Positions 3,954 through 34,842 of a DNA stretch of 64,000 bases are shown here, in pieces. Source of the DNA: an uncultured Alphaproteobacteria bacterium (GTDB lineage: Bacteria; Pseudomonadota; Alphaproteobacteria; Sphingomonadales; Sphingomonadaceae); contig CAWKKZ010000001.1 of the NCBI GenBank assembly GCA_963850395.1, positions 23,559 to 87,558 of the forward strand, in the 5' to 3' direction. The notes beneath the pieces are model-generated. The model did not search any database, was not told the DNA's origin, and was given only the letters and a program-made list of their open reading frames with translations. Both the position numbers and the translations under genes were made by a program. Every line of letters starts with the position of its first letter. Position 1 is the stretch's first letter.

Positions 3954-4724
3954 ATGGGGCGGATTGCAAATCTCCTTCTGGCGGCAATTCTTGGACTCTT
4001 CTCCGCCTCACTGGCCGTGATATATCAGAATGAGATTGCCGGATTTTTCGGACGCGCTCCAATTACAGCAAAGGTCGACATCGGGCCTTGGTATCCTTTC
4101 TATGCCCGTGAAGGCGGACCGCACTATTCCAAGCAAGATGATGAAGCCATAGGTGAAATTTCTGATCCAAGAGAACTTTCCTTTGCACGAGTCTCACATA
4201 AAGAATAGAAGCGCATCAAAGATTGATAGCGTCATCTTTAGCGTTGACGATGTAAATCTTGAAAGCTCTAGCCCATACCATTTTCATGCAGTAGTTCTGC
4301 GAGGTGGCGGCAAAACTGCGTCGAGGTCATTCTATGACAACGCTTCTCACAATATTAATTTTGGCTCGCTTGAAGCTGCTCAGAGCTTAACTGCGTATGT
4401 ATGGAGCAATCGGACTTTTTCCTATCCGCACGATCCTAGTGATATCGTAATTTTGACTTCAAATGGAAACGCAGTTACGTCTGCAAATAGATACTCTGGA
4501 GATGTGGGATCGATTTAATATTTGACGTAGAAACTGAATTTATAGCATGGGTAATTGTGTTTGTTACATTGTTTATATCATTTCTAACCTATTTTTACGC
4601 CAATCACTTCTTCAATTTTATCAAATTAGTACTTAAGGATGATGATTATTACTTGAGTGAGAAAATCCGATACGAGGAGGATCCGCAAAAATACATAGTC
4701 CCGGAGAGCCTTCCAAAGCAATAA
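3954..4724 (+). pseudogene. AT-rich hypothetical membrane protein of about 256 aa, interrupted by a +1 and a -1 frameshift
   Basis: Three abutting frames (3954-4208, 4153-4518, 4491-4724; the last has no start codon) join into a protein with N- and C-terminal TM segments; markedly AT-rich versus flanks. Confidence 0.5.
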
Positions 4725-4869
4725 TTCCGGGGCGAGTTCCGGGCGGATTTCGGTGACACTTAATTACGGCGACAGCTTACTCAATCCCCAATTGCCGCCA
4801 CACTTCCAAACTTCACCTTCGCGCCGCGAGCGATCATCGCCAGCAGCATCCGCGCGGCGCAATCGGGGC

Positions 4870-4893
4870 GGCGGCGGGCCGGAGCCCGCCGCC
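4870..4893. terminator. GC-rich hairpin downstream of the 133-aa gene
   Basis: GGCGGCGGGC-CGGA-GCCCGCCGCC, 10-bp perfect stem; no clear U-tract. Confidence 0.35.
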
Positions 4894-4902
4894 TTCCGCG
4901 GA

Positions 4903-5304
4903 TCAGAAGCTGTGCGAAACCGTGTTCGATTTCTTCTTCACTTCGCTCGTCGTGTAGAGGTTGACCAGTTTGAACAGGGCATAGACCTCGTCCTTGCCCC
5001 AGTCCTCGTCGAGCACGCCTTCGCCGAGCAGGACATCGAAGGTGCGGTCTTCGCTCGCGGTCGGCGAGGCGTCGGGGAAGAAGAAGGCCTCCGAATAGGT
5101 GAACAGGAAGTCGTCACCGAAGGTCAGGCCCGAATCCTCGCCCCACAGCTGGCATTTCAGCTTGAAGAAGCGCGCGCCGCTGCAGTTCTTCATCTGGCAC
5201 AGCTCGAGCGCGGTGAAGTTGACCCGGCACTTGGCGGTCGCCTTGACGATCTTCTTGCGATGATCGTGGGCCAGGGCGAGGGTTGCGTTGGTAATCGTAG
5301 CCAT
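4903..5304 (-). CDS. Hypothetical protein (133 aa)
   Basis: AGGAG RBS upstream, GC3-rich codon usage typical of host genes, protein-like composition. Confidence 0.75.
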   Translation of the reverse strand: MATITNATLALAHDHRKKIVKATAKCRVNFTALELCQMKNCSGARFFKLKCQLWGEDSGLTFGDDFLFTYSEAFFFPDASPTASEDRTFDVLLGEGVLDEDWGKDEVYALFKLVNLYTTSEVKKKSNTVSHSF

Positions 5305-5555
5305 GAGACATTCTCCTGTATGGACAGGGCCTGCGAGCCAGGCCGATAGTCCAGTTGCGAATGCGACCCGGCTGTTTTGTTATTCGGGTGAAATAATGGC
5401 CCCCGCGCTGGCAAATCCCCTCCAGCATTATTCACGATCAGTTGCAGACGATGTTCTTCCAGTCCTGAGTGAAGGCAGAATTACCTTCACACCGGCTGCT
5501 TTTCGAAGCTGTTATTTAATTGAACTCTATGCCCCAAGGCTTGCAGTTCGGGTGG

Positions 5556-5570
5556 TTAAGAATTTGTTAG
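5556..5570. promoter_or_regulatory. CtrA-box-like motif TTAA-N7-TTAG
   Basis: TTAAGAATTTGTTAG in an AT-rich divergent intergenic region; one mismatch to TTAA-N7-TTAA. Confidence 0.3.
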
Positions 5571-5808
5571 GTTTTTGCCGATGCGCGACAGGGCGTGGCG
5601 GGCGCGAGGTGGAACTGCGATCCGCCAATTGCGGACCGGGCGGGGACCCGCACCAGCCTGTCCCCGTGCCCCGCGCTTTCCTACACCCCCGGCCCCGGCT
5701 ATCATCGTCCCCGGCGCCGGAATTGGGCTGTTTTTTTCATTTCCTGGACCCTGTCAGGTGTGTCAGGTTCCAGTCGGCACCCATCCCCGCCAACCGAAGG
5801 ACCGCCCG

Positions 5809-6300
5809 ATGAAGCTGCTCCCTGCCCTGCTTGCCGCCCTGCCCCTGCTGAGCGCCGCCCCCGCCGCCGTGGCGCAGGAGCTGCGTCCGGTGCTGACCGC
5901 GGCTTCGGCCCAGACCATCGTTGCGACCTGCGCCGCCATGGCGACCGAGCGCGGCTGGAAGGTTTCGATCGCGGTGCAGGACAATGGCGCCAACCTCGCC
6001 GCGTTCCTGCGGATGGACGGCACCGGGCTCGCCTCGGTCGAGGTCGCGCAGTGGAAGGCCGGGGCGGCGGCCAGCTGGGGCTGGCAGACCAAGCAGATGG
6101 TCGAGCGGATCGCCACCACCCCCAGCTTTGCCTTTGCCCCGCGCGTCGCCACCTTCGAAGGCGGGGTGCCGGTCTATTCGGCCGACGGCAAGGTGCTGCT
6201 CGGCGGGGTCGGGGTATCGGGCGCGGCCAGCGCCGACGATGCCGCCTGCGCCCGCGCCGGGATCGTCAAGGCCGGCCTCACCGATGTCCGCGCGCCTTAG
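5809..6300 (+). CDS. GlcG/HbpS family heme-binding protein with signal peptide
   Basis: Signal peptide MKLLPALL...AVA; VSIAVQDNG.NL.AFLRMDG, KA..AA, FEGGVPV, GGVGVSGA motifs. Confidence 0.85.
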   Translation: MKLLPALLAALPLLSAAPAAVAQELRPVLTAASAQTIVATCAAMATERGWKVSIAVQDNGANLAAFLRMDGTGLASVEVAQWKAGAAASWGWQTKQMVERIATTPSFAFAPRVATFEGGVPVYSADGKVLLGGVGVSGAASADDAACARAGIVKAGLTDVRAP

Positions 6301-11770: not shown

Positions 11771-12592
11771 TCATTGGACCTTTGTAGGACGAAACCCCCT
11801 ATAGACCCAATTCACGGTCCACCCGAGCAGCCACATAAACAGGGCTGGGAACAGTGCATAAAGGATCGCAGGATAGGCCGCTGAAATGAACGACCGCTCG
11901 CACTCGATGTGGTAGTCGGGACCGTAAGATTCTTGGCTCATTTTCACAGAGTTGAGAATGCAGCCTTTTAAAGCAGGCTGCGTCGCATTCGCCTCCCGAT
12001 ATAGCGCATTCCAAAACGCCTGATCCTTCAGCGCTGCCGTAGCCTGCGAAGGTGAATGATACGCATTGACCGATCGGTCTTCGCCAAACTGGACAAGGAA
12101 TATCGGCGCGCCGATCAGCAAGGATAGGACAACCCAAAGTCTTTTCCATCCACTCATCCGCTTGCGCTCCGTCTTTTCCTGGCCTTCTTTTCGAGCAGTC
12201 GCCTTCAACCTGGCGGAAGAAGCGTCCAGCTGGCGTTGAATCTTTCGTTTAGCAACCCGCTGTCGAGCTGTCATTTGGAGATCAGAGGCCCACTCCCCCA
12301 GAGCTTCGCAAAGCGCGGACAGGATGGCAGGTGCAATCAACAGAAGCCACCAGACCCGATCCCAATTCAAAATTTTGTGCGGAGCTTTCGCCAAGCCAAG
12401 TGTTATCCAAAATGGTTCTTCTGAATAATGGCCGTCCACCAATAGGCCCCATAGTCCCTCGAATAGCTCGATTAGTCCCCACCAAAATGAGGCAATCGCA
12501 ACCAAGCCGAAAAAGAGCTGCCCCCCAGAAAGGATCATGCTCAACTTTGGATGCGGACGCGGAATGGCTGGCATAGCTCCCTCCTTCCGCAA
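11771..12592 (-). CDS. Hypothetical protein with about 4 TM segments, lower GC than host genes
   Basis: 273-aa ORF (possible start at 12574 after AGGAGGGAG); hydrophobic segments separated by a basic coiled linker. Confidence 0.7.
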   Translation of the reverse strand: MRKEGAMPAIPRPHPKLSMILSGGQLFFGLVAIASFWWGLIELFEGLWGLLVDGHYSEEPFWITLGLAKAPHKILNWDRVWWLLLIAPAILSALCEALGEWASDLQMTARQRVAKRKIQRQLDASSARLKATARKEGQEKTERKRMSGWKRLWVVLSLLIGAPIFLVQFGEDRSVNAYHSPSQATAALKDQAFWNALYREANATQPALKGCILNSVKMSQESYGPDYHIECERSFISAAYPAILYALFPALFMWLLGWTVNWVYRGFRPTKVQ

Positions 12593-12667
12593 CTATGTCT
12601 ATCAATGAGTATAAATTCAACCAAAGGAATTGCGGCGACGACTTGCATCGTCACAAAACTCCCTCTC

Positions 12668-13459
12668 CTATTTCCGCCGCTTGTAACCCGCAGGCAACTC
12701 GTCGCCCTTACGCGGGGCTTCGCCGCCGGGGCGGTTCATGATCCGCTCGAAGCTTGCGCCATCGGTGCGGCGGGCGCTTATGATCTCCGCCATCTGCTCT
12801 ACCGTCATACGTCTACCGAAGTCGAGCGTCTTGCGTATCGGCTCGAAAACCTGAAGCATGTTCCGGTAGTTTTCGACCATGTTGCAATGAGAATTCAATG
12901 AGCGCTGCTCTTCGCCAAAGCGGCTAAACCGTTTGAGGTCCCGCACCAAGAACAACGCGATGCTGTAGCATTCGCCTTCCTCGTTACCGTCGAAGCCCGA
13001 AAACCTAACGGTTTTGTAGGGTGCAATCTTCCCCGCAAGTTCAGACTTCTCCTCCTCGCTAAACCGATCGTAGTCCTCTTCGAGGAAACGCCACATATCG
13101 AGCACGTCAACGACAAAACCTACGCGGCGCTGCTTGTCAGCCTGGCCATGGAAAATGTGGGGCATTTCCCAGCCGAGCGCCCAATAATGCCCTCCCACGA
13201 TTGCCTTCTGGACAAGGCTCACATCGTTATCGACCCCGACGCCGGATTTTTCGATGAACTCCGCAAGGATCATCGCAATCAGCTTTTCGCCATCCGAGAG
13301 GTGCGGTGCGCGGCCGCGGTTGTCATGAGCCAAACCATCCTCAAGCAGGCGACGCACCGCTTCCGCTCGCGATGGCGTGTCATCTTCGGTGGACCGCCAG
13401 TTGTCGAGCCGATCTAGCAACTCGCTGTCGATTCGCATTTCAAATCGCTCCGATGCCAT
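12668..13459 (-). CDS. Ribbon-helix-helix domain fused to a YfbU (UPF0304) family domain
   Basis: N-terminal RFEMRIDSELLDRLDNWR...SRAEAVRRLLEDGL (RHH); C-terminal FVVDVLDMW, FSGFDGNEE, LNSHC, YRNMLQVF typical of YfbU. Confidence 0.8.
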   Translation of the reverse strand: MASERFEMRIDSELLDRLDNWRSTEDDTPSRAEAVRRLLEDGLAHDNRGRAPHLSDGEKLIAMILAEFIEKSGVGVDNDVSLVQKAIVGGHYWALGWEMPHIFHGQADKQRRVGFVVDVLDMWRFLEEDYDRFSEEEKSELAGKIAPYKTVRFSGFDGNEEGECYSIALFLVRDLKRFSRFGEEQRSLNSHCNMVENYRNMLQVFEPIRKTLDFGRRMTVEQMAEIISARRTDGASFERIMNRPGGEAPRKGDELPAGYKRRK

Positions 13460-13720
13460 ATCCGTAATTCCGTATATAGTTACGTAATACCGGCTCAGAT
13501 AACGAGGAATGTTGGATTTGGCAAGCCCCGGCTTGGGCAGTGCCAACCTGAAGCGCAAAATTCCCCATTCAACCAGCTCGAGGCTTTCCTACATGCCCTT
13601 GCATTGGCATTGTGCGGACGGTCTCGAAGTTGCTTTGCGTTCAAAATGCCCCGCCTGCCTGCAATTCAAGGCAAGTAACTGTTTATATTGAATTACACCA
13701 GATTCCGGTTACCCCTCTCA

Positions 13721-13783
13721 GCCGCTTTGAACCCGCTCCAGGTCGCCTTGTACCCCTCCTAGGTCGCTTTGTGCCCCGTCTGT
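13721..13783. repeat. Imperfect 21-bp tandem repeat, 3 copies
   Basis: GCCGCTTTGAACCCGCTCCAG / GTCGCCTTGTACCCCTCCTAG / GTCGCTTTGTGCCCCGTCTGT. Confidence 0.5.
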
Positions 13784-13903
13784 GCCCCCTTGTGCGAACC
13801 ACTGGCCGCAAGCGCCAAAATCCGCCGGTTTCGGGATAAATGCTACAACATCCCGCTCAGCCTGAGCTTGTCGCCGGCCCCGCGCCCGCGCCATCACCGC
13901 GCC

Positions 13904-14458
13904 ATGGCGATTCTTTCCGACAAGTGGATCCGCACCCAGGCGCTCGAGCACGGGATGATCGAGCCGTTCGTCGAGGCGCAGCGGCGGGACGGGTGCATCA
14001 GCTACGGCCTCTCCTCCTACGGCTACGACGCGCGGGTGGCGGAGGACTTCAAGATCTTCACCAACGTCAATTCCTCGATTGTCGATCCCAAGAACTTCGA
14101 TCCCGACAGCTTCGTCGACCGCAGCACCGATGTCTGCGTGATCCCGCCCAATTCGTTCGCGCTGGCCCGCACGGTCGAATACTTCCGGGTGCCGCGCGAC
14201 GTGCTGGTGATCTGCCTGGGCAAGAGCACCTATGCCCGCTGCGGGATCATCGTCAACGTCACCCCGCTCGAGCCGGGCTGGGAAGGCCACGTGACGCTGG
14301 AGTTCTCGAACACCACCCCGCTGCCCGCCAAGATCTATGCCAACGAGGGCGCCTGCCAGTTCCTGTTCCTCCAGGGCAACGAACCCTGCGAGACCAGCTA
14401 CGCCGACCGCGCCGGCAAATACATGGGCCAGCGCGGGGTGACGCTGCCCAAGCTTTAG
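13904..14458 (+). CDS. dcd: dCTP deaminase
   Basis: [59 protein letters not shown]. Confidence 0.97.
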
Positions 14459-19513: not shown

Positions 19514-20857
19514 CTATTTCGGCCCGTACATCCTGGGATCGACCTCGGTCCTGGCAATCCCGAAATGGCCGCGCAGCCGGTTGAGCTGGGCGAGCATCCC
19601 GAATTCGGCCAGCAAGGTGCCGAACCGGGCGATTTCGCTGTCGACCGTCGAGCTGTAAACCGAGTTTTGGGCGTCGAGCAGATCGAGCAGCGAGCGGCGC
19701 CCGATCCCGAACTGGGCGCGGTAGGAATCGAGCACCAGCGCCGAGACCGCAAAGCGGGTTTGCTGCTCGGTAAATTTGGCGCGCCAGGTTTCCAGCGTGA
19801 CCCAGGCTTTGCGCACTTGCAGCTCGGTGTCGCGCTGCTGGGCGGCCAGGGCGAAGCGGGCCTGGTCTTCAAGGAAATCGGCTTGGCGGATCTTGGCGGC
19901 CGCAATTCCGCCGTCGAACAAAGGCCAGCGCATCGCGAACAGCAGTTCGTATTCGCGGGTTTCGCCGCGATAGCCCTGGAAGTCCTCACCCGCCCGGGCC
20001 GAGCCGCGCATGCTGACCGTCGGCCAGCGCTCTGAGCGGGTTCGTTTGGCGCTCCACCCGGCTGCCACCAGCTTGTCCTGGGTTGCCTGCAGTCGCTGAT
20101 CGTCAGCAGCGGCAGCGGCAATGGCCGCGTCAAGCGAGGCCGGCAACGAACTGCTTGGGCCGGCTGGCAGGCTCAGATCGAAATCATCGCTGCCGACCAG
20201 CAGCGCCAGTTCCGAACGCGCCGAAACCAGATCGCTCCGCGCCTGCGCAGCCTGCACCTTGGCGCTTTGCAGACGTTCCTCGGCCTGCTGCCGTTCGGCG
20301 ATGCTCATGGCGCCGCGCTTGACCCCTTCGGCAACATCGGCGGTCAGCTCCTGGTGGAACGCCAGATTGTCATCGGCAGCAGCCAGAATGCGCAGCTGAA
20401 CCATGGTCTGCAGATAGGCCCGCGTGACATTGAAGGCAGCGGTCTCCCCCGCCACCTGCTCATCGTGCCGACTGGCGGAAAGGTTGGCTTTCTGCGCCTT
20501 GGTCTCATTGCCGATCCGGCCAAAATCCCACAGCGCCTGATCGAGCGAGATCGTGCCATAAAGCGGCTTCTCGTTGACCGCCGAAAAGCCCAGGTTGATC
20601 CGGGCATCGTTTTCCAGGTGCCGCCAGCCGGTTGCGGCATCGACCGTCAGCTTGGGCAGCCACTCGCGCTTGACCTGATCCTTGACCGCCTCGGCCGCGC
20701 CGACCCGGGCCTGGGCATGTCCCAATTCGGGACTGCGTTTAAGCGCGATATACTGCGCCTGAGCCAGGGTCAGCGGCTCGGCAAAACCGGGCGTTGCAGC
20801 CACCGCCAATAGCGCCAGCGCACTCGCCGCCAGCCGGAATCTTCCATGTCGCCCCAT
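19514..20857 (-). CDS. TolC family outer membrane protein of a type I secretion system
   Basis: Signal peptide; QF.IGRRSLLDLLDAQ motif typical of LapE/AggA-type TolC; divergent from the adhesin. Confidence 0.92.
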   Translation of the reverse strand: MGRHGRFRLAASALALLAVAATPGFAEPLTLAQAQYIALKRSPELGHAQARVGAAEAVKDQVKREWLPKLTVDAATGWRHLENDARINLGFSAVNEKPLYGTISLDQALWDFGRIGNETKAQKANLSASRHDEQVAGETAAFNVTRAYLQTMVQLRILAAADDNLAFHQELTADVAEGVKRGAMSIAERQQAEERLQSAKVQAAQARSDLVSARSELALLVGSDDFDLSLPAGPSSSLPASLDAAIAAAAADDQRLQATQDKLVAAGWSAKRTRSERWPTVSMRGSARAGEDFQGYRGETREYELLFAMRWPLFDGGIAAAKIRQADFLEDQARFALAAQQRDTELQVRKAWVTLETWRAKFTEQQTRFAVSALVLDSYRAQFGIGRRSLLDLLDAQNSVYSSTVDSEIARFGTLLAEFGMLAQLNRLRGHFGIARTEVDPRMYGPK

Positions 20858-21301
20858 CACGTAACCTCCCGATTCGCATCGCTGCGCCGCCTGCTTGGTA
20901 CCGCGAAAAGCGCCGCAGCCCAAATGTTTGGATCGATTCGCCGGTTCAAGCGCTGGTTGGAATCACCCGCGATCGCCCTGCATCTCGATCGGGTTACCTA
21001 GCGCCACCCGGCGAATTGCCGCAATCCCGGCTTGATCAGCGCGGCAAAGCGGGCGTTTCGTCGAGTCTGCAAACGGCCTGTCGCAGTTGAGGTAAACCGA
21101 AAAGAACCTTTGCTTTCCCGGATTTGAATGGTAGCAAAATAGTTAACGAATCGAGGTCGCACTCACTGCCCTGCCCTGTTCGCCGTTCTGGCGAACGCGA
21201 TGCGCGGGAGGTGAGTCGGCGATCAAAGCCGGACAATCTGGATGCTTGGCGGCAAGTGCGCGGCGGGATGCCTGCGCGCTTGCGAGGGAGAGGAATGAGC
21301 G

Positions 21302-24300
21302 ATGGCTGAAATTCTGAATGCTGATGTCGTCCTGGCAACCACATTGTCCGTCAATCCCTACACGTTTCAACGCAACTACGATGAAGACGCAGCACTCGAA
21401 ACGCTGTTCATTCAGCAGCTGGGGGTCGGCAGTTCGCTTACCTCGGGCACGGGATCCTACATTCCGTTCCTCAACCAGAACTCTAACGATGCTTCATCGC
21501 AGGGCTTCAACACCAGCGACGGCCTTGCCAAGGCTCCTGGCAATGGCGCCGGCCTCGATATGTCGAATACCGGGGCGACCACCGCGATCCAGCTCAAGGA
21601 TATTCCGATCGTCATCGGGCCGGATGGGCAGCGGTACTACGAGATTCGGCTGGACCTCAACGAGGAGAACAATAGCGGCACTGATGCTTCCGGCGCGCCT
21701 AATCGACTGCTCAGTTTGACGGAGTTCCAGCTTTATTGGTCCGATGGTCAGGCGACCCTTGCCGACTATAACGCCGTGACTTTCGAAAACCGTGCATTTG
21801 ACGCAGTCGATGGTTTCCACCTTGGCTTCGACCTTGACGCCAATGACGATCGCACCATCGTGCTGCGCGATTCAAACCCCGGCGGCGGCAAGGACGACTA
21901 TGTATTCTATATCCCGATCGATTCGTTCGCGGGCGCTCTCCCGACTTCCAATGTCACCTTGTTCTCCCAGTTCGGCCCCAATCCGGACGAGGGCGCGACG
22001 CCAGAGGAATGGCGAATCCGCACCACTTCGCAGATCGACGGCTTCAAGTTCAACGATCTCGACAGCGATGGACAGGCCGACGCGGGCGAAACCGGCGCAG
22101 GAGTATTCGGCGTATCCGGCATCACGATCAAAATCTATCAGGACCAGTACATCGATACCAATGGCAACGGCTTTCAAGATGCCGCGTCGGGCAATGGCGC
22201 CAACGCGGTGCCTGCTGAAACCGGAAACGGCGTGTTCGATGCTACCGACGATCTCATCGGAACGGTTACGACCGACACCAATGGCAATTTCACCTTTTAC
22301 AACCTGCTGCCGGGTACCTATTTCATCCAGGAAGTCGTGCCACCCGGCGCCGTGTCGACAACCGACGATTTGATAACGATAACGATAACGTCATCGGGGC
22401 AAGATATTGCCGGTATAGGCATCGGCAACCACTACCTCACCCCCAACATCAGCATCGACAAGAACTTCGTCAACGTCACCGATGGACCCGATCCCTCGGG
22501 CGGGACCACGGTCATCAACGGCGCTGGCGATATTGCCAATTACACCATTGCCGTGACCAACAACGGCGAGACCGGACTGGTCAATGTCCAGCTGACCGAT
22601 ATCCTGGCGACTACGCTGACCGAACAAGTTGACGGCGGGGGCTTCAACGTCGGCGATCTCAATGACGACGATGTGCTCGATATCGGCGAAATCTGGCAAT
22701 GGACCGCGACCCAGACCGCGACCCAGGCCGACCTCGACACCAACGGCGGCACCAACGACAGCGATCTTGACAATTCCGCCACCGTAGTCGCGACCCAGCA
22801 GGGGGTTCCGGGGACGCAGGTTACCGACACCGATCCCGCCGCGGCGCCGATTGTCCGGGCACCTGCCATTGCGATCACCAAGGTCTTCGATGGCTGGTCG
22901 GGCGGCGACGGCGACAACCTTGGCGATGCTGCGGGTGATGTCGCAAACTATACCATCGTGGTCACCAATACCGGCAATGTCACACTGACCAATGTCGTTG
23001 TCACCGATCCGTTGACCGGCAACGTTTACAATGTCGGAATTCTGGCACCCGGTGCGTCGAGCGCACCGCTCATCGAAAACTACATTTTGACACAGGCCGA
23101 TCTCAACTCGAACGGTACGCTCGAGGTAAATAACGTCTTCGTGGGTTCGATCGACAACACCGCGACCGCGACCAGCAACCAGACTGGTCCGGCTTCGGCC
23201 AGCGCGGTCGCGCCGATTGTTCAGACCCCGGTGCTGCTGATCGACAAGACCGGGACCACCGACGGTGGCGATCCGGACTGCGCCGATGTGATCGGCGAGA
23301 ACATCAACTGGACGGTCAGCGTCAGCCGTGCCGGCAATGTTGATATCGACGGCGTGGTGGTGACCGACGACATCGACGGCGACGGCGATCTCGACGTTCT
23401 GGTCCGCGATGACACGCTGAGCAGCGGCGACGACGATGGCGTGCTCGAAGCGGGCGAGACCTGGGTCTACACCTTTGCCAACCCGGTGACCGCGGGCATG
23501 ATCAATGCCAACCAGGACATCGTCAACACCGCCTATGCCAATGGCGAAGCGGTCAACTCAAGCACTGCCGCACAGGAAGTCAGCGACAGCGCTTCGGTCG
23601 ATATCTGCCAGTACCCGGTGCTGCTGATCGACAAGACCGGGACCACCGACGGTGGCGATCCGGACTGCGCCGATGTGATCGGCGAGAACATCAACTGGAC
23701 GGTCAGCGTCAGCCGTGCCGGCAATGTTGATATCGACGGCGTGGTGGTGACCGACGACATCGACGGCGACGGCGATCTCGACGTTCTGGTCCGCGATGAC
23801 ACGCTGAGCAGCGGCGACGACGATGGCGTGCTCGAAGCGGGCGAGACCTGGGTCTACACCTTTGCCAACCCGGTGACCGCGGGCATGATCAATGCCAACC
23901 AGGACATCGTCAACACCGCCTATGCCAATGGCGAAGCGGTCAACTCAAGCACTGCCGCACAGGAAGTCAGCGACAGCGCTTCGGTCGATATCTGCCAGTA
24001 CCCGGTGCTGCTGATCGACAAGACCGGGACCACCGACGGTGGCGATCCGGACTGCGCCGATGTGATCGGCGAGAACATCAACTGGACGGTCAGCGTCAGC
24101 CGTGCCGGCAATGTTGATATCGACGGCGTGGTGGTGACCGACGACATCGACGGCGACGGCGATCTCGACGTTCTGGTCCGCGATGACACGCTGAGCAGCG
24201 GCGACGACGATGGTGTGCTCGAAGCGGGCGAGACCTGGGTCTACACCTTTGCCAACCCGGTGACCGCGGGCATGATCAATGCCAACCAGGACATCGTCAA

Positions 24301-27300
24301 CACCGCCTATGCCAATGGCGAAGCGGTCAACTCAAGCACTGCCGCACAGGAAGTCAGCGACAGCGCTTCGGTCGATATCTGCCAGTACCCGGTGCTGCTG
24401 ATCGACAAGACCGGGACCACCGACGGTGGCGATCCGGACTGCGCCGATGTGATCGGCGAGAACATCAACTGGACGGTCAGCGTCAGCCGTGCCGGCAATG
24501 TTGATATCGACGGCGTGGTGGTGACCGACGACATCGACGGCGACGGCGATCTCGACGTTCTGGTCCGCGATGACACGCTGAGCAGCGGCGACGACGATGG
24601 TGTGCTCGAAGCGGGCGAGACCTGGGTCTACACCTTTGCCAACCCGGTGACCGCGGGCATGATCAATGCCAACCAGGACATCGTCAACACCGCCTATGCC
24701 AATGGCGAAGCGGTCAACTCAAGCACTGCCGCACAGGAAGTCAGCGACAGCGCTTCGGTCGATATCTGCCAGTACCCGGTGCTGCTGATCGACAAGACCG
24801 GGACCACCGACGGTGGCGATCCGGACTGCGCCGATGTGATCGGCGAGAACATCAACTGGACGGTCAGCGTCAGCCGTGCCGGCAATGTTGATATCGACGG
24901 CGTGGTGGTGACCGACGACATCGACGGCGACGGCGATCTCGACGTTCTGGTCCGCGATGACACGCTGAGCAGCGGCGACGACGATGGCGTGCTCGAAGCG
25001 GGCGAGACCTGGGTCTACACCTTTGCCAACCCGGTGACCGCGGGCATGATCAATGCCAACCAGGACATCGTCAACACCGCCTATGCCAATGGCGAAGCGG
25101 TCAACTCAAGCACTGCCGCACAGGAAGTCAGCGACAGCGCTTCGGTCGATATCTGCCAGTACCCGGTGCTGCTGATCGACAAGACCGGGACCACCGACGG
25201 TGGCGATCCGGACTGCGCCGATGTGATCGGCGAGAACATCAACTGGACGGTCAGCGTCAGCCGTGCCGGCAATGTTGATATCGACGGCGTGGTGGTGACC
25301 GACGACATCGACGGCGACGGCGATCTCGACGTTCTGGTCCGCGATGACACGCTGAGCAGCGGCGACGACGATGGTGTGCTCGAAGCGGGCGAGACCTGGG
25401 TCTACACCTTTGCCAACCCGGTGACCGCGGGCATGATCAATGCCAACCAGGACATCGTCAACACCGCCTATGCCAATGGCGAAGCGGTCAACTCAAGCAC
25501 TGCCGCACAGGAAGTCAGCGACAGCGCTTCGGTCGATATCTGCCAGTACCCGGTGCTGCTGATCGACAAGACCGGGACCACCGACGGTGGCGATCCGGAC
25601 TGCGCCGATGTGATCGGCGAGAACATCAACTGGACGGTCAGCGTCAGCCGTGCCGGCAATGTTGATATCGACGGCGTGGTGGTGACCGACGACATCGACG
25701 GCGACGGCGATCTCGACGTTCTGGTCCGCGATGACACGCTGAGCAGCGGCGACGACGATGGTGTGCTCGAAGCGGGCGAGACCTGGGTCTACACCTTTGC
25801 CAACCCGGTGACCGCGGGCATGATCAATGCCAACCAGGACATCGTCAACACCGCCTATGCCAATGGCGAAGCGGTCAACTCAAGCACTGCCGCACAGGAA
25901 GTCAGCGACAGCGCTTCGGTCGATATCTGCCAGCTTCCCGAAATCACGATCGTCAAGACCGCTTTCGTCAACAGCGACTGCGCCGATAGGGCGCTTGAGG
26001 AGATCGATTACACCATCAAGGTGACCAACACCGGCAATGTCAGCCTTACCCAGCTTACTGTCACAGACGATTTCGCCAATGCCGTCCCGCTCTATATCTC
26101 GGGCGACCACGATGCCGACGATCTGGATGGCGACGGCGATCTTGTTGAAGGCAACGGCGTTTTCGATGTCGGCGAGACTTGGGAGTTCGGCGCCTATCAC
26201 GTCGTCACCCAGGCCGAGATCGACGCCGGTGGCAATTATGACAGCAACAACGACGGCAAATACGATTCGCTGCGCAATGTCGCCTCCGCAATCGGCTACA
26301 CGGTCAACAACGTAGCCACCGAGCTGGTCCAGGACGACGCGGTGGTCAAAGTTTGCCACGATCCCGAGATCAAGATCGTCAAGGTTGGCACCCCGCCTGA
26401 CGATTGCCTCGATGCCGGTGACACGATTTCCTACACCTACACCGTCACCAACACTGGTAATGTCGCGCTCGCCAATGTGGTCGTCGATGACGACAAGGTG
26501 ACGGTTGTGGCTGTCGATACCGACGGCGATGCCATCGCCGACAACGACGGCGACATCGACGGGGACGGGCTGCTCGATCTCGATGAAGCCTGGATCTATA
26601 CCGCCCAATACACCGTCACCCAGGAAGATATGGACACCTATGGCGGCACCGGCGACGACAAGATCGAGAACCGGGTCACTGCCAATGCAGTGGCGGCGGT
26701 TTCGGGCGTGATCGCGGAAGAAGCGTTTGACACGGAAGAGCTCCTGCTCTGCCACGAATACGCGATCGACCTGGAAAAGTACGTCTCAGTCGATTCGACC
26801 GATGGCGTCAACGGCACTTTCACCGATGCCGACTCCCTCACTGGCCTGCAGGTGGTCAATGTCCTGTCCGACGTCTGGTTCCAGGTAACCCTGACCAACG
26901 GAGGCAATACCCAGCTGACCGGGATCGACATCAAGGATGTCAATACCAGCAACGGCCAGGCCGGTATCCTGTTCGACCTGATGGTTGACGGCGCGCTGAC
27001 CGCCAATGCGGCCAACAACTTCGCCGCGACGCTGGATGGCGATCTCGACAACGATGGCAACCTTGATGTCGATGAGACTTGGACGATCACCTACAAGCAG
27101 GCGTTCGATGCGGGTCAGCACATCAACACCGCCACCGTGACGACCAACGAACTGGTGACCGACAAGGACGATGCCTATTACTACAGCCTGACCGATTGCG
27201 GCCCGGGCGTGGGTACACCAGGGTTCTGGAAGAACCTGGGCTATCAGTTCTGGGACGTAAACCCGAACAACCAGACCAAATCGGGCGACAACTTCCCCGA

Positions 27301-27943
27301 TCACGATCTGCTGGTGGTCGATAAGGACATGGACGGCGACTACCAGGTCGGGGCCGTGGGCAGCACCGACGCCTATCTGACGGTCAACGGGGTCAAGGGC
27401 CTGCTGCTCGGCGATTACAACATGAACGGGCTCACCGATGCAGGCGAGAACACGCTGTTCATCAGCGTCACCGACGGCAGGAAGCTGATCGACGCCTCGC
27501 AGAAGCAGCAGCAGGACGGCAAGTGGATGCTCGGGCGCGACATGGTCGCCAGCTGGCTCAACTACCTCGCCGGCAATGCGATCGACTTTGGTGACAATAC
27601 CACCGCAGGCTTCAACGATCCGTTCAGCCCGAAGGCCTACCTCAACGATGCGATCGAGTGGCTGAAGGAATACGGCGATCTCAACGACGACGGAATCCTC
27701 GATTCGACTACCGGCTCGACTTTCGTTGCGAAGGCCAATGCGATCTCGACCAGCAGTGTCAAGTGGAGCAACGCAGCTCTGGATGGCGTCGCCGGCAACA
27801 ATTTCTCCGCCAGCCAGGCGCACACCGCGCTCGATTACTACAACAACACCGGCGATGTCTGGAACCCGGTTACGATGCAGTACGTCGAGTTTGCCTGCGA
27901 CCGCGACGACTTCATGCAGATGCAGGCAGTCAGCTTGGTCTGA
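21302..27943 (+). CDS. Large repetitive T1SS adhesin (2213 aa): N-terminal domain, SdrD-B-like domain, about 12 DUF11/DUF7507-type Ig repeats, GTPGFWKN C-terminal domain
   Basis: No signal peptide; acidic, D/G/T/V-rich; FNDLDSDG...TTDTNGNFTFYNLLPGTY (SdrD-B-like); repeated (I/L)xK...YT..V.N.GNV....V.D...NTA units; flanked by TolC, ABC and HlyD genes. Confidence 0.9.
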   Translation: MAEILNADVVLATTLSVNPYTFQRNYDEDAALETLFIQQLGVGSSLTSGTGSYIPFLNQNSNDASSQGFNTSDGLAKAPGNGAGLDMSNTGATTAIQLKDIPIVIGPDGQRYYEIRLDLNEENNSGTDASGAPNRLLSLTEFQLYWSDGQATLADYNAVTFENRAFDAVDGFHLGFDLDANDDRTIVLRDSNPGGGKDDYVFYIPIDSFAGALPTSNVTLFSQFGPNPDEGATPEEWRIRTTSQIDGFKFNDLDSDGQADAGETGAGVFGVSGITIKIYQDQYIDTNGNGFQDAASGNGANAVPAETGNGVFDATDDLIGTVTTDTNGNFTFYNLLPGTYFIQEVVPPGAVSTTDDLITITITSSGQDIAGIGIGNHYLTPNISIDKNFVNVTDGPDPSGGTTVINGAGDIANYTIAVTNNGETGLVNVQLTDILATTLTEQVDGGGFNVGDLNDDDVLDIGEIWQWTATQTATQADLDTNGGTNDSDLDNSATVVATQQGVPGTQVTDTDPAAAPIVRAPAIAITKVFDGWSGGDGDNLGDAAGDVANYTIVVTNTGNVTLTNVVVTDPLTGNVYNVGILAPGASSAPLIENYILTQADLNSNGTLEVNNVFVGSIDNTATATSNQTGPASASAVAPIVQTPVLLIDKTGTTDGGDPDCADVIGENINWTVSVSRAGNVDIDGVVVTDDIDGDGDLDVLVRDDTLSSGDDDGVLEAGETWVYTFANPVTAGMINANQDIVNTAYANGEAVNSSTAAQEVSDSASVDICQYPVLLIDKTGTTDGGDPDCADVIGENINWTVSVSRAGNVDIDGVVVTDDIDGDGDLDVLVRDDTLSSGDDDGVLEAGETWVYTFANPVTAGMINANQDIVNTAYANGEAVNSSTAAQEVSDSASVDICQYPVLLIDKTGTTDGGDPDCADVIGENINWTVSVSRAGNVDIDGVVVTDDIDGDGDLDVLVRDDTLSSGDDDGVLEAGETWVYTFANPVTAGMINANQDIVNTAYANGEAVNSSTAAQEVSDSASVDICQYPVLLIDKTGTTDGGDPDCADVIGENINWTVSVSRAGNVDIDGVVVTDDIDGDGDLDVLVRDDTLSSGDDDGVLEAGETWVYTFANPVTAGMINANQDIVNTAYANGEAVNSSTAAQEVSDSASVDICQYPVLLIDKTGTTDGGDPDCADVIGENINWTVSVSRAGNVDIDGVVVTDDIDGDGDLDVLVRDDTLSSGDDDGVLEAGETWVYTFANPVTAGMINANQDIVNTAYANGEAVNSSTAAQEVSDSASVDICQYPVLLIDKTGTTDGGDPDCADVIGENINWTVSVSRAGNVDIDGVVVTDDIDGDGDLDVLVRDDTLSSGDDDGVLEAGETWVYTFANPVTAGMINANQDIVNTAYANGEAVNSSTAAQEVSDSASVDICQYPVLLIDKTGTTDGGDPDCADVIGENINWTVSVSRAGNVDIDGVVVTDDIDGDGDLDVLVRDDTLSSGDDDGVLEAGETWVYTFANPVTAGMINANQDIVNTAYANGEAVNSSTAAQEVSDSASVDICQLPEITIVKTAFVNSDCADRALEEIDYTIKVTNTGNVSLTQLTVTDDFANAVPLYISGDHDADDLDGDGDLVEGNGVFDVGETWEFGAYHVVTQAEIDAGGNYDSNNDGKYDSLRNVASAIGYTVNNVATELVQDDAVVKVCHDPEIKIVKVGTPPDDCLDAGDTISYTYTVTNTGNVALANVVVDDDKVTVVAVDTDGDAIADNDGDIDGDGLLDLDEAWIYTAQYTVTQEDMDTYGGTGDDKIENRVTANAVAAVSGVIAEEAFDTEELLLCHEYAIDLEKYVSVDSTDGVNGTFTDADSLTGLQVVNVLSDVWFQVTLTNGGNTQLTGIDIKDVNTSNGQAGILFDLMVDGALTANAANNFAATLDGDLDNDGNLDVDETWTITYKQAFDAGQHINTATVTTNELVTDKDDAYYYSLTDCGPGVGTPGFWKNLGYQFWDVNPNNQTKSGDNFPDHDLLVVDKDMDGDYQVGAVGSTDAYLTVNGVKGLLLGDYNMNGLTDAGENTLFISVTDGRKLIDASQKQQQDGKWMLGRDMVASWLNYLAGNAIDFGDNTTAGFNDPFSPKAYLNDAIEWLKEYGDLNDDGILDSTTGSTFVAKANAISTSSVKWSNAALDGVAGNNFSASQAHTALDYYNNTGDVWNPVTMQYVEFACDRDDFMQMQAVSLV
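23228..25933 (+). repeat. Intragenic tandem array: 7 x 387 bp (129 aa)
   Basis: Unit PVLLIDKTG...SASVDICQ(Y); by eye the copies differ only at one synonymous site (GGC/GGT). Confidence 0.97.
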
Positions 27944-28077: not shown

Positions 28078-29814
28078 TTGACCTTGGCTTCGCCTACTGA
28101 CGTCGAACTGCCCAAATCGCGGATAGCCCCGTGGCTGGCGGGGCCGCTGCGCAAGAACCGTGCGATCTATTTCAAGGTCGGCGCGGCGGCAGCGATGATC
28201 AACTTCTTCGCGCTGATCACCGCCTTGTTCACGATGACGGTTTACGACCGGGTGGTTCCCAACAATGCCACCGAATCGCTGATCGGGCTGACCATCGGCC
28301 TTGCCATCGTGGTGATTTTCGACTTCACATTGAAGCTGTTGCGCGCCTATTTCGTCGACGTGGCGGGCGCGCGGATTGACCGCGATATCGGCCGCTCGAT
28401 CTTCCAGCAGATCCTCGACATGCGGCTCGATTTTGGCAAGGGTTCGACCGGCGGGCTGGCCAGCCTGGTCCGTGAAATCGAGACGCTGCGCGATTTCTTT
28501 GCCAGCGCGACGCTGACCGCGCTGGTCGATCTGCCATTCATTTTCATCACCCTGGCGGTAATGGGCTGGATCGGTGGCTGGCTGGTGATGGTGCCGGTGG
28601 TGCTGATCCCGCTGGTGGTGATCACCGGGCTCGCCTCGCAGCCGGTGATGCGGCGCCTGTCCGCCGAATCGCTGGGTGAGGCGATGGGCAAGCAGGCGGT
28701 GCTGGTCGAGACGATCGGCAGCCTTGAGACAGTCAAGTCGGCCAATGCCGGCGCCATGCTGGCCGAACGCTGGGACAAAGCGGTGATGGGCCATGCCGGC
28801 GCTTCACTGCGCCAGCGCGTGGTTTCCACGCTTTCGATCAATATGGCCGGCACCGTGCAGACCCTGGCCTATACCGGGGTGGTGATCTTCGGGGTCTATA
28901 TGATCGCCGATCAGACCCTGACCATGGGCGGGATGATCGCCTGTTCGATCCTGGCCGGGCGCGCGGTGGCGCCGCTGGGCGCGATCGCCCACCTGCTGAC
29001 CCGGATCAACGCGGCGCGCACCGCCTACACCCAGATCGACCGGATGATGCAGCAGCCGCCCGAGGGGCCGGCTGGGGCCGGCCTGCAGATCGGTAAGATC
29101 GAGGGCGGGCTTGAATTCCGCGACGTCGATTTCCGTTATCCCGGAGCGCCCGAACTGGCGCTCACCGGCGTCAACTTCAAGATCAAGCCGGGCGAGCATG
29201 TCGCGCTGATCGGTCCGATTGGCTCGGGCAAATCGACCATCGCGCGGCTGCTGATCGGCCTCTATCCGCCCAGCAGCGGGTTGATCCTGATCGACGGCAC
29301 CGACATCCGCCAGCTCGCCCCGCAGCTGCTGCGCCGCAAGGTGGGGGCGCTGTTCCAGGACAACGTCCTGCTGACCGGCACCATCCGTGAAAACATCATG
29401 CTCGGCCGCGAAGACGTTGATGACGAAGAGATGCTGCGCGCCTCGCGGGTCAGCGGGGCGCACGATTTCATCTCGGCGTTCCCATCGGGCTACGAACTGG
29501 TCATGACCGATCGCGGCGAAGGGCTCTCGGGCGGGCAACGCCAGGCGATCGCCATGGCCCGGGCCCTGGCCGGAAAACCGCCGGTGCTGATCCTCGACGA
29601 GCCGACCTCGTCGGTCGATACCGAAACCGAGGGTCGCCTGATCCAGCGGCTGCGCGACGAATTCGAGGGGCGCACGCTGATCCTGATCACGCACCGTCCG
29701 TCGATGCTGGCCCTGGTCGATCGGGTGATCCTGATGGCGCGCGGTCGCGTGGCGATGGATGGCACGCCCGAGCAGATCACCGGCCGGGTCCGGGCCATAT
29801 CCGCAGCGAGGTAA
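28078..29814 (+). CDS. T1SS ABC transporter (permease/ATPase) lacking an N-terminal C39-like domain
   Basis: MTVYDRVVPN, GPIGSGKST (Walker A), LSGGQRQ, LILDEPTS; TTG start at 28078 or 28084. Confidence 0.95.
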   Translation: MTLASPTDVELPKSRIAPWLAGPLRKNRAIYFKVGAAAAMINFFALITALFTMTVYDRVVPNNATESLIGLTIGLAIVVIFDFTLKLLRAYFVDVAGARIDRDIGRSIFQQILDMRLDFGKGSTGGLASLVREIETLRDFFASATLTALVDLPFIFITLAVMGWIGGWLVMVPVVLIPLVVITGLASQPVMRRLSAESLGEAMGKQAVLVETIGSLETVKSANAGAMLAERWDKAVMGHAGASLRQRVVSTLSINMAGTVQTLAYTGVVIFGVYMIADQTLTMGGMIACSILAGRAVAPLGAIAHLLTRINAARTAYTQIDRMMQQPPEGPAGAGLQIGKIEGGLEFRDVDFRYPGAPELALTGVNFKIKPGEHVALIGPIGSGKSTIARLLIGLYPPSSGLILIDGTDIRQLAPQLLRRKVGALFQDNVLLTGTIRENIMLGREDVDDEEMLRASRVSGAHDFISAFPSGYELVMTDRGEGLSGGQRQAIAMARALAGKPPVLILDEPTSSVDTETEGRLIQRLRDEFEGRTLILITHRPSMLALVDRVILMARGRVAMDGTPEQITGRVRAISAAR

Positions 29815-34248: not shown

Positions 34249-34842
34249 TCAGTCTCCGGTTGCGGCTTCAATGACGTCGCGCAGGCGGTCCTTGCCGAAA
34301 TAGAGTTCCTCGCCCAGCAGGAAGCTGGGAATCCCGAACACCCCGCGCGCCACGGCAGCTTCGGTATTGGCGACCAGCCGCGCCTTGATCTCGGGATCGC
34401 CGACTGCTTCGGTCAGTGCGGCGGGCAGCCCGGCCTCGGCCAGCGCCGCCTGCCACACGTTCGGATCGTCCATCTTGAGGCCGCGCTCCCACATCGCGGC
34501 GAACATCGCCTCGGTATAGGCCGGCGCGCAGCCCAGCGCCTCGGCCGCCACCGCGCCGCGCATCATCTGCAGGGTATTGACCGGGAAATGCGGGTTCATT
34601 GTATAGCCCGTGATCGCGTGTCTGGCGATGAAACGGCGCATCTCGAGCATGTCGTAGGCGCGCTTGGCGGCAATGTGGCCATAGGCCTGCATCGGGCTCT
34701 GGTTGCCGGTTGCCTTGAATATCCCGCCGAGCAGCACCGGCGTGTAGCGAAAGTTGGCCTTGCCCTGGGCCAGGATCGCACGGTGGACCAAGTAGGCGTT
34801 GGGGCTGCCAAAATCGTAAAGGAACTCGATCGTTTGCGGCAT
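34249..34842 (-). CDS. 2-hydroxychromene-2-carboxylate isomerase / DsbA-family protein
   Basis: FLYDFGSPNAY, PVLLGGIFK, FPVNT, RGVFGIPSF, YFGKDRL. Confidence 0.88.
   Translation of the reverse strand: MPQTIEFLYDFGSPNAYLVHRAILAQGKANFRYTPVLLGGIFKATGNQSPMQAYGHIAAKRAYDMLEMRRFIARHAITGYTMNPHFPVNTLQMMRGAVAAEALGCAPAYTEAMFAAMWERGLKMDDPNVWQAALAEAGLPAALTEAVGDPEIKARLVANTEAAVARGVFGIPSFLLGEELYFGKDRLRDVIEAATGD

Follow-up and report, generated by a model that had tools for sequence, protein, structure and literature searches.

Introduction

The domain families DUF7507 and DUF11 (PF01345) were renamed CLIPPER_2 and CLIPPER in 2025 and are described as CnaA-like (PMC12617251; Costa et al., Protein Sci 2025). 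Members of the CLIPPER families form an intramolecular Lys-Asn isopeptide bond whose formation is catalyzed by an Asp, and a crystal structure of a CLIPPER domain is available as 9IFR (PMC12617251). In the same survey, a disulfide was predicted to accompany the isopeptide in 34.9% of CLIPPER_2 domains and, within Pseudomonadota, in 58.2% of isopeptide domains; these disulfides lie "at various sites," and secretion routes are not discussed there (PMC12617251). Cargo of type I secretion systems (T1SSs) must be unfolded for export (PMC8277102), and since such cargo stays unfolded until it is outside, every covalent staple in it must form after export. A precedent for disulfides comes from immunoglobulin (Ig) domains exported by the Hly T1SS as single-chain variable fragment (scFv)- or nanobody-HlyA fusions, which, in the account of Fernandez and de Lorenzo (2001) as cited in PMC6410518, gain their disulfides independently of Dsb enzymes. 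The present study concerns a giant predicted adhesin encoded in a 64,000-nucleotide stretch (hereafter, the window) of an uncultured alphaproteobacterium of the family Sphingomonadaceae (assembly GCA_963850395.1, contig CAWKKZ010000001.1, positions 23,559 to 87,558, forward strand). Its gene lies beside genes of a T1SS, and its stalk carries cysteines in regular pairs.

An earlier note on this DNA, made from the sequence alone, had described the paired cysteines and had taken them to indicate about 10 disulfides and an unusual maturation route. The interpretation favored here, with a probability of about 0.68, is that the protein is a fibrillar T1SS adhesin without repeats-in-toxin (RTX) sequences, the stalk of which would be stapled both by isopeptide bonds and by intradomain disulfides formed outside the cell without Dsb enzymes. 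The word "unusual" holds in part. The adhesin does stand out among its Cys-poor relatives, but disulfides in CLIPPER_2 domains and Dsb-independent oxidation of T1SS cargo have both been published; the adhesin is a Cys-pair-rich member of a known domain family, and the phenomenon itself is not new.

Paired cysteines in the adhesin stalk

The adhesin has 2,213 residues, of which 20 are Cys, none of them before residue 660. They are found at positions 660, 769, 789, 898, 918, 1027, 1047, 1156, 1176, 1285, 1305, 1414, 1434, 1543, 1560, 1685, 1702, 1817, 1966, and 2199, with gaps that alternate between 109 and 20 residues and then run 17, 125, 17, 115, 149, and 233. Two Cys fall in each of seven tandem repeats and in each of the two stalk domains that follow (d10 and d11); the C-terminal domain has the remaining two. 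Nine of the 12 stalk domains bear Cys, and d1, d2, and d12 have none. The span that had been singled out earlier, 23228-27943, is only the Cys-bearing part of the open reading frame (ORF) at 21302-27943. The translation of this ORF on the forward strand and the spacing of its Cys residues bear out the arrangement of 20 Cys as domain-wise pairs, and every sequence context quoted for them (DPDCAD, NSDCAD, PDDCLD, DICQ, KVCH, LLCH, LTDCGP, and FACDR) was found. The N-terminal part is Cys-free as had been stated, but its length is 659 residues and not 641, residue 641 being the start of the repeats. The domain before the array does end without a Cys, its terminus reading ...APIV.

Cys makes up 0.90% of the adhesin, which is close to the crude average of 1.06% over the ORFs of the genome (median, 0.97%), and it is the arrangement of the Cys, not their amount, that is the notable feature. 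The copies of the 387-nucleotide repeat unit diverge by 0 to 3 bases each, and because they are nearly identical, the 14 Cys of the repeats represent one recently amplified pair. The independent observations of a Cys pair are therefore four, namely, the repeat, d10, d11, and the C-terminal domain; the repeat, d10, and d11 share 35 to 41% identity with one another. Essentially all variation among the repeat copies comes from unit position 214, a C/T site that looks synonymous and is T in copies 3, 4, 6, and 7. Their near-identity suggests a very recent expansion or ongoing conversion, and the copy number could have been collapsed or inflated by the assembly.

Within each stalk domain that has them, one Cys (the N-site) follows the first strand and the other (the C-site) ends the domain. 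Conservation of the two sites was surveyed in a set of about 260 homologous proteins and 80 genome loci, from which 238 unique homologous domains of 98 proteins covered both Cys columns. Both Cys were present in 74 of these domains and neither in 160, with only 4 domains having a single one (Fisher P of ~8e-57, ignoring phylogeny). The two sites appear and vanish together, which is the behavior that a bonded pair predicts. The two Cys columns of the C-terminal domain also co-vary, with both Cys in 29 sequences, one in 5, and none in 6.

The order of the sites along the stalk gives a second line of evidence. In the adhesin and in all 10 of the C-terminal-domain relatives that carry such Cys, the array starts at an N-site and ends at a C-site, with no C-site upstream of the first N-site and no N-site downstream of the last C-site. 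Nine of the 10 relatives have as many N-sites as C-sites. This parity fits pairing within domains, whereas pairing between neighboring domains would strand two Cys.

Modeling agrees with this reading. An AlphaFold2 (AF2) model of residues 1545 to 2213, built on a 16-row alignment, has a predicted local distance difference test score (pLDDT) of ~90 over d10 and d11, with mixed confidence for the C-terminal domain. In d10 and d11, strand A was placed at model residues 4 to 12 and 146 to 153, with Cys at 16 and 158, and the last strand at residues 132 to 140 and 264 to 272, with Cys at 141 and 273. The N-site Cys of these two domains lies 4 to 5 residues past strand A, and the C-site Cys follows the last strand immediately. 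Across the nine Cys-bearing stalk domains, the distance from strand A to the N-site Cys is 4 to 11 residues, and the final strand ends with the C-site Cys. In a tandem rod, these strand positions would bring both Cys of one domain to its distal pole. Covariation, array parity, and the modeled strand positions together favor the domain-wise, intradomain pairing that had been proposed, and the Cys pair is most likely an intradomain disulfide; no rival fits the covariation and parity data as well.

Stalk domains and the predicted isopeptide

The adhesin matched CLIPPER_2/DUF7507 (PF24346) in Pfam over 11 stretches with 360.3 bits, against a gathering cutoff of 27, and a search of the genome returned the same 11 stretches. 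Further Pfam matches in the adhesin were to DUF11 and SdrD_B/SpaA. The residues that correspond to the isopeptide triad can be aligned across the six domain types, with the Lys in strand A, the Asp closing the VTD strand, and the Asn on the penultimate strand. None of these columns varies when 15 homologs are included (K150, D186, and N246 in A1, with equivalents in the other domains). The stalk domains can be assigned on this basis to the CLIPPER_2 (CnaA-like) domains, each of which should form a Lys-Asn isopeptide bond. The earlier note was silent on Lys-Asn isopeptide domains in this finding, and the identity of the domains changes the role in which the disulfide is to be seen.

A loop of the DxDxDG type occurs in all nine Cys-bearing stalk domains, in d12, and in the C-terminal domain. 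Its resemblance to the calcium loops of dockerins and EF-hands in the Protein Data Bank (PDB) search was subthreshold (E of 0.2 to 0.5) and is a lead rather than evidence. The PDB sequence search, run with the full protein and with a profile of the six domain types, gave no significant match and did not reach 9IFR. A fold search with the 669-residue model recovered generic tandem-Ig arrays (integrin legs, antigen I/II C-domains, PrgB, and SiiE) and, for the C-terminal domain, nothing specific.

Other CLIPPER_2 arrays use different Cys sites, in agreement with the "various sites" of the published survey. In the homologs P0031, P0046, and P0051, the pairs are a C-x13-C pair in a loop and a C-x21-C pair in the last (F/G) hairpin. 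The C-x13-C pair replaces the acidic calcium-type loop in CLIPPER_2 homologs; a domain seems to have either the calcium-type loop or the loop disulfide but not both.

Secretion route and relatives

The status of the adhesin as a T1SS substrate, put forward in the earlier note, is supported by the flanking genes for a TolC-like outer-membrane factor, an ATP-binding cassette (ABC) transporter, and a HlyD-family adaptor, by an N-terminus that by inspection has no signal, and by synteny across relatives. A search with the C-terminal domain matched 145 loci in species-representative genomes, and the best 80 of the 145 were kept; they come mostly from Sphingomonadales, Caulobacterales, and Hyphomicrobiales, with a few from cyanobacteria. 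Homologs of the ABC transporter and the membrane fusion protein (MFP) lie within the flanks of at least 54 of the 80 kept loci, usually directly downstream, and some of the kept loci without them sit on short contigs. The ABC gene adjoins the genes of the Cys-pair-bearing homologs P0040, P0121, and P0036, each of which was checked; an MFP gene also follows for P0040 and P0036, and the contig of P0121 ends 98 nucleotides past the ABC gene. By inspection, the N-termini of the adhesin and its homologs are acidic and have no hydrophobic core after a basic n-region. RTX nonapeptides (GGxGxDxUx) are absent from the adhesin, in which a single isolated GGTGDD occurs at residue 1781, and Pfam gave no HemolysinCabind match. 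The protein is very probably a T1SS substrate.

The terminal domains are candidates for the features that define this group of proteins. The C-terminal domain presumably carries the T1SS signal and may be a family-specific secretion and folding module; it contains the motifs (R/G)TPGFW, LLxGDYNxNGxTDxGE, and GRDxVAxWLNYLAGN. The N-terminal domain was modeled by AF2 as all-beta, with a predicted template modeling score (pTM) of 0.75. Neither terminal domain had a Pfam match even at an E of 10. A function for the N-terminal domain from a fold match was considered and rejected, the best PDB match being a viral jelly roll at an E of 0.075. Within the genus, distribution is patchy, with a C-terminal-domain homolog in 3 of 24 genomes.

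T1SS substrates are generally poor in Cys. A literature search found no explicit published statement to this effect, but the expectation is borne out within the present family. Cys is absent altogether from 31 of the 80 kept genome homologs, and most of the remaining ones have only 1 to 5 Cys, mainly in the C-terminal domain. The stalk Cys pair was found in only about 5 of the 80, and metagenomic relatives carry 2 to 6 pairs. With nine stalk pairs, the adhesin is the most Cys-pair-rich member among the homologs examined.

Proposed maturation and points against it

In the maturation route that we propose, the chain would stay unfolded and reduced in the cytoplasm and would be threaded out C-terminus first. 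Each domain would then fold outside the cell, with calcium at the DxDxDG-type loops probably aiding, and the isopeptide between the Lys of strand A and the Asn of the penultimate strand would form spontaneously on folding. The Cys pair, brought together by the same folding, would oxidize extracellularly without Dsb enzymes. The expected mechanical consequence can be illustrated with the first repeat. A Lys649-Asn745 isopeptide would leave the last 24 residues of the domain, including the final strand, free to peel under load, and a C660-C769 disulfide would anchor the domain's terminal residue at the A-B loop. In such a domain, 109 of 129 residues would be short-circuited covalently, and about 18 per 129-residue domain would be left in the force path, so that the stalk would become resistant to extension and proteolysis. 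The clamp role of the stalk disulfide is in keeping with the F/G-hairpin Cys site in relatives, which likewise secures the last strand. The tenth pair, C1966-C2199, would probably link the beginning of the C-terminal domain to a site 14 residues before the end of the protein.

Several points weigh against this interpretation. The isopeptide and the disulfide are both predictions from sequence and modeling rather than chemical observations, and the clamp role is one that we infer. The placement of the two Cys at the same pole comes from secondary structure and tandem-domain topology and not from a Cys-Cys distance, and export through the adjacent T1SS is read from synteny. In d11, the triad Asn is displaced by two alignment columns (RVTANA). 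A two-Cys metal site or a pair of free thiols would account for the all-or-none covariation as well. The pair from the A-B loop to the last strand is also one of several Cys solutions in CLIPPER_2 domains, and a less surveyed one.

Alternative explanations

If the stalk disulfides form, their oxidation may need catalysis or another dedicated step, for example transient access of periplasmic DsbA to the threading chain or an oxidant at the surface or outside the cell. Such a requirement is unlikely; if it were real, one-step type I secretion would be coupled to oxidative folding in a way not yet described. Better supported than this is the view that the adhesin belongs to an undescribed family of RTX-less T1SS adhesins, alphaproteobacterial with some cyanobacterial members, that is defined by N- and C-terminal domains without a Pfam match and whose stalks would be cross-linked covalently only after export.

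That the Cys instead stay reduced, as metal ligands or as reactive thiols for metal or surface binding or for intermolecular cross-linking in a matrix, appears quite improbable. The covariation is compatible with a two-ligand site, Asp residues flank the N-site (D-C-x-D), and a His follows the C-site in d10 and d11. However, the residue after the C-site varies among homologs (Q, H, E, D, or W), which leaves no extra conserved ligand, and a pair of thiols with no further ligand would bind metal poorly. The AF2-based survey scores such CLIPPER_2 pairs as disulfides (PMC12617251), and the extracellular setting of an aerobic alphaproteobacterium would favor oxidation.

There is a slim chance that the pattern is of little functional significance and only reflects the copying of one ancestral pair in a very recent amplification of the repeat. 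Consistent with this, the seven repeats differ at only 0 to 3 of 387 bases, and the family members without Cys (31 of 80) indicate that the pair is dispensable for the fold. Nevertheless, d10 and d11 retain the pair at identical columns in spite of their low identity to the repeat, and distant T1SS-linked and Bacteroidota homologs retain it with nearly no singletons, which points to selection on the pair as a unit.

It is very unlikely that Dsb enzymes of the periplasm introduce the disulfides while secretion is stalled or proceeds in two steps, with a periplasmic intermediate like that of LapA. Two-step T1SS adhesins are known (PMC8861453), and the genome encodes DSBA-family proteins (8 matches) and one LapG-like Peptidase_C93 gene. 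The latter is located on another contig (contig 3), outside the adhesin locus, where neither lapG nor lapD was found. The adhesin contains neither the LapG dialanine motif [TAPS]AA[GV] nor RTX repeats, and its ABC transporter is without the C39-like domain that adhesin and RTX exporters typically have, the TIGR03375 match covering model positions 134 to 690 only. Moreover, the LapA model keeps nothing but the N-terminal retention module in the periplasm, and the Cys-bearing stalk (residues 660 to 1817) would by then be outside. The DSBA-family gene found in the window has no CxxC motif. A periplasmic intermediate, which the earlier note had allowed for, has no support here, with no LapG-type motif in the adhesin, no local lapG or lapD genes, and no C39-like domain on the ABC transporter. 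LapG-type processing of the adhesin was rejected on the same grounds, the dialanine motif being absent and the LapG-like gene lying off the locus.

Finally, interdomain pairs, in which the C-site of one domain would bond the N-site of the next, 17 to 20 residues on, to give rigid linkers with C660 and C1817 free, are extremely improbable and were rejected: the short gaps of 17 to 20 residues do recur, and alternating Cys runs in the wider family are mostly bounded by short gaps (110 SS versus 24 LL), but the SS runs use other Cys sites within one domain (the C-x13-C loop and the F/G hairpin), the array parity of the adhesin and all 10 relatives would always strand two Cys, and the two Cys concerned flank the 8- to 9-residue strand A, ~25 to 30 Å long, and would lie at opposite poles of the following domain.

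Organization of the locus

The coordinates of the adhesin gene, its domains, and the T1SS genes are given in Table 1. The TolC-like protein scored 205.7 bits against TIGR01844, slightly below the cutoff of 225.

Table 1. Adhesin gene, its domains, and flanking type I secretion genes (window positions)
Feature	Position	Strand	Basis or remark
TolC-like outer-membrane factor, 469 residues, divergent from the adhesin gene	19514..20923	-	Pfam OEP, 9.1e-44
Adhesin gene	21302..27943	+	Single ORF, 2213 residues; no RTX repeats, no signal peptide by inspection
N-terminal beta-sandwich domain, residues 42-267, Cys-free, motif GTGxYxPFL...GFNT	21425..22102	+	Conserved in ~45 homologs
SdrD_B/SpaA (CnaB-like) domain, residues 283-369	22148..22408	+	Pfam PF17210, 2.5e-08; PF17802, 5.2e-08
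d1 (residues 379-518) and d2 (residues 519-640), CLIPPER-type, without Cys	22436..23221	+	Pfam DUF11/DUF7507; alignments show Lys/Asp/Asn
Seven tandem CLIPPER_2 copies, 387 nucleotides/129 residues each, N-site Cys DPDCAD and C-site Cys VDICQ	23227..25933	+	Tandem Repeats Finder: 7.0 copies, 99% matches
d10 (residues 1544-1685; C1560/C1685) and d11 (residues 1686-1817; C1702/C1817), diverged CLIPPER_2, both Cys sites kept	25931..26752	+	Alignments; AF2
d12 (residues 1818-1961), CLIPPER_2-like, without Cys	26753..27184	+	Alignments; AF2 model
Conserved C-terminal domain, residues 1962-2213, C1966 and C2199	27185..27943	+	Recurs in homologous genome loci; syntenic with ABC and MFP genes
T1SS ABC permease/ATPase, 578 residues, LssB subfamily	28078..29814	+	TIGR03375, 722.9 bits (cutoff, 693.1)
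HlyD-family T1SS periplasmic adaptor, 434 residues	29818..31122	+	TIGR01843, 326.9 bits (cutoff, 208.65)

Other features of the window and the genome were recorded. A DSBA-family (PF01323) ORF lies at 34276-34833 on the reverse strand, 6 kb downstream of the adhesin, and reads FGSPNAY in place of CxxC. Its candidacy as a local oxidase was rejected, since both a CxxC motif and a signal peptide are missing; the product is probably a cytoplasmic protein of the 2-hydroxychromene-2-carboxylate (HCCA)-isomerase or glutathione S-transferase (GST)-kappa type, unrelated to the adhesin. Two segments of the window, 4001-6000 and 12001-14000, have a GC content of ~0.55, compared with 0.63 to 0.67 in their surroundings, and are possible foreign insertions. 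On contig 3 (C3), at ~533966 on the forward strand, a 2,532-residue ORF with only 2 Cys ends ...DFLDIALVDNNGRR and may encode another giant secreted protein. The single Peptidase_C93 (LapG-like) gene of the genome is found elsewhere on the same contig, at 1510461-1510826 on the reverse strand, and the two together hint at a separate LapA-type adhesin system.

Significance and comparison with described systems

The adhesin combines two self-installing staples per domain, an expected isopeptide and probably a disulfide. It would make a good natural system for studying how disulfides form in one-step secreted proteins, what a disulfide adds to an isopeptide-locked domain under mechanical load, and what the unannotated N- and C-terminal domains are that define a widespread T1SS-linked family. 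Practical interest is modest and lies in the repeat as a compact, doubly stapled scaffold domain.

With the CLIPPER and CLIPPER_2 domains (PMC12617251, 9IFR), the adhesin shares Pfam membership, the tandem organization of a fibrillar-adhesin stalk, the Lys/Asp/Asn triad, and a predicted disulfide that co-occurs with the isopeptide. The characterized CLIPPER example, B9T28_05395 of A. silvestris, has an OmpA-like anchor and a CxxC in its last strand, whereas the pair in the adhesin would connect the A-B loop with the terminal residue of the last strand and the gene lies in a T1SS locus. The giant T1SS adhesins SiiE, LapA/MapA, and MpIBP have in common with it a very large, acidic stalk of Ig-like repeats in which each domain has acidic motifs resembling calcium loops, adjacent genes for the ABC transporter, MFP, and outer-membrane factor, and, for the adhesin as judged by inspection, the absence of a Sec signal. 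Unlike them, the adhesin has no RTX nonapeptides, no LapG dialanine site, and no C39-like domain on its ABC transporter; its stalk is predicted to consist of covalently cross-linked CnaA-like domains, and its terminal domains belong to no Pfam family. Two kinds of covalent staple in an Ig-like domain of a tensile fiber are also a feature of the pilins and MSCRAMMs of Gram-positive bacteria (e.g., SpaA-type pilins). Those proteins, unlike the adhesin, are exported by Sec, anchored by sortase, and oxidized by a membrane-bound thiol-disulfide oxidoreductase. The scFv- and nanobody-HlyA fusions exported by Hly share with the adhesin an Ig-type domain, one intradomain Cys pair, and one-step T1SS export. 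However, they are engineered cargo carrying an RTX/HlyA signal, whereas the adhesin, with nine to ten pairs, would be a natural one.

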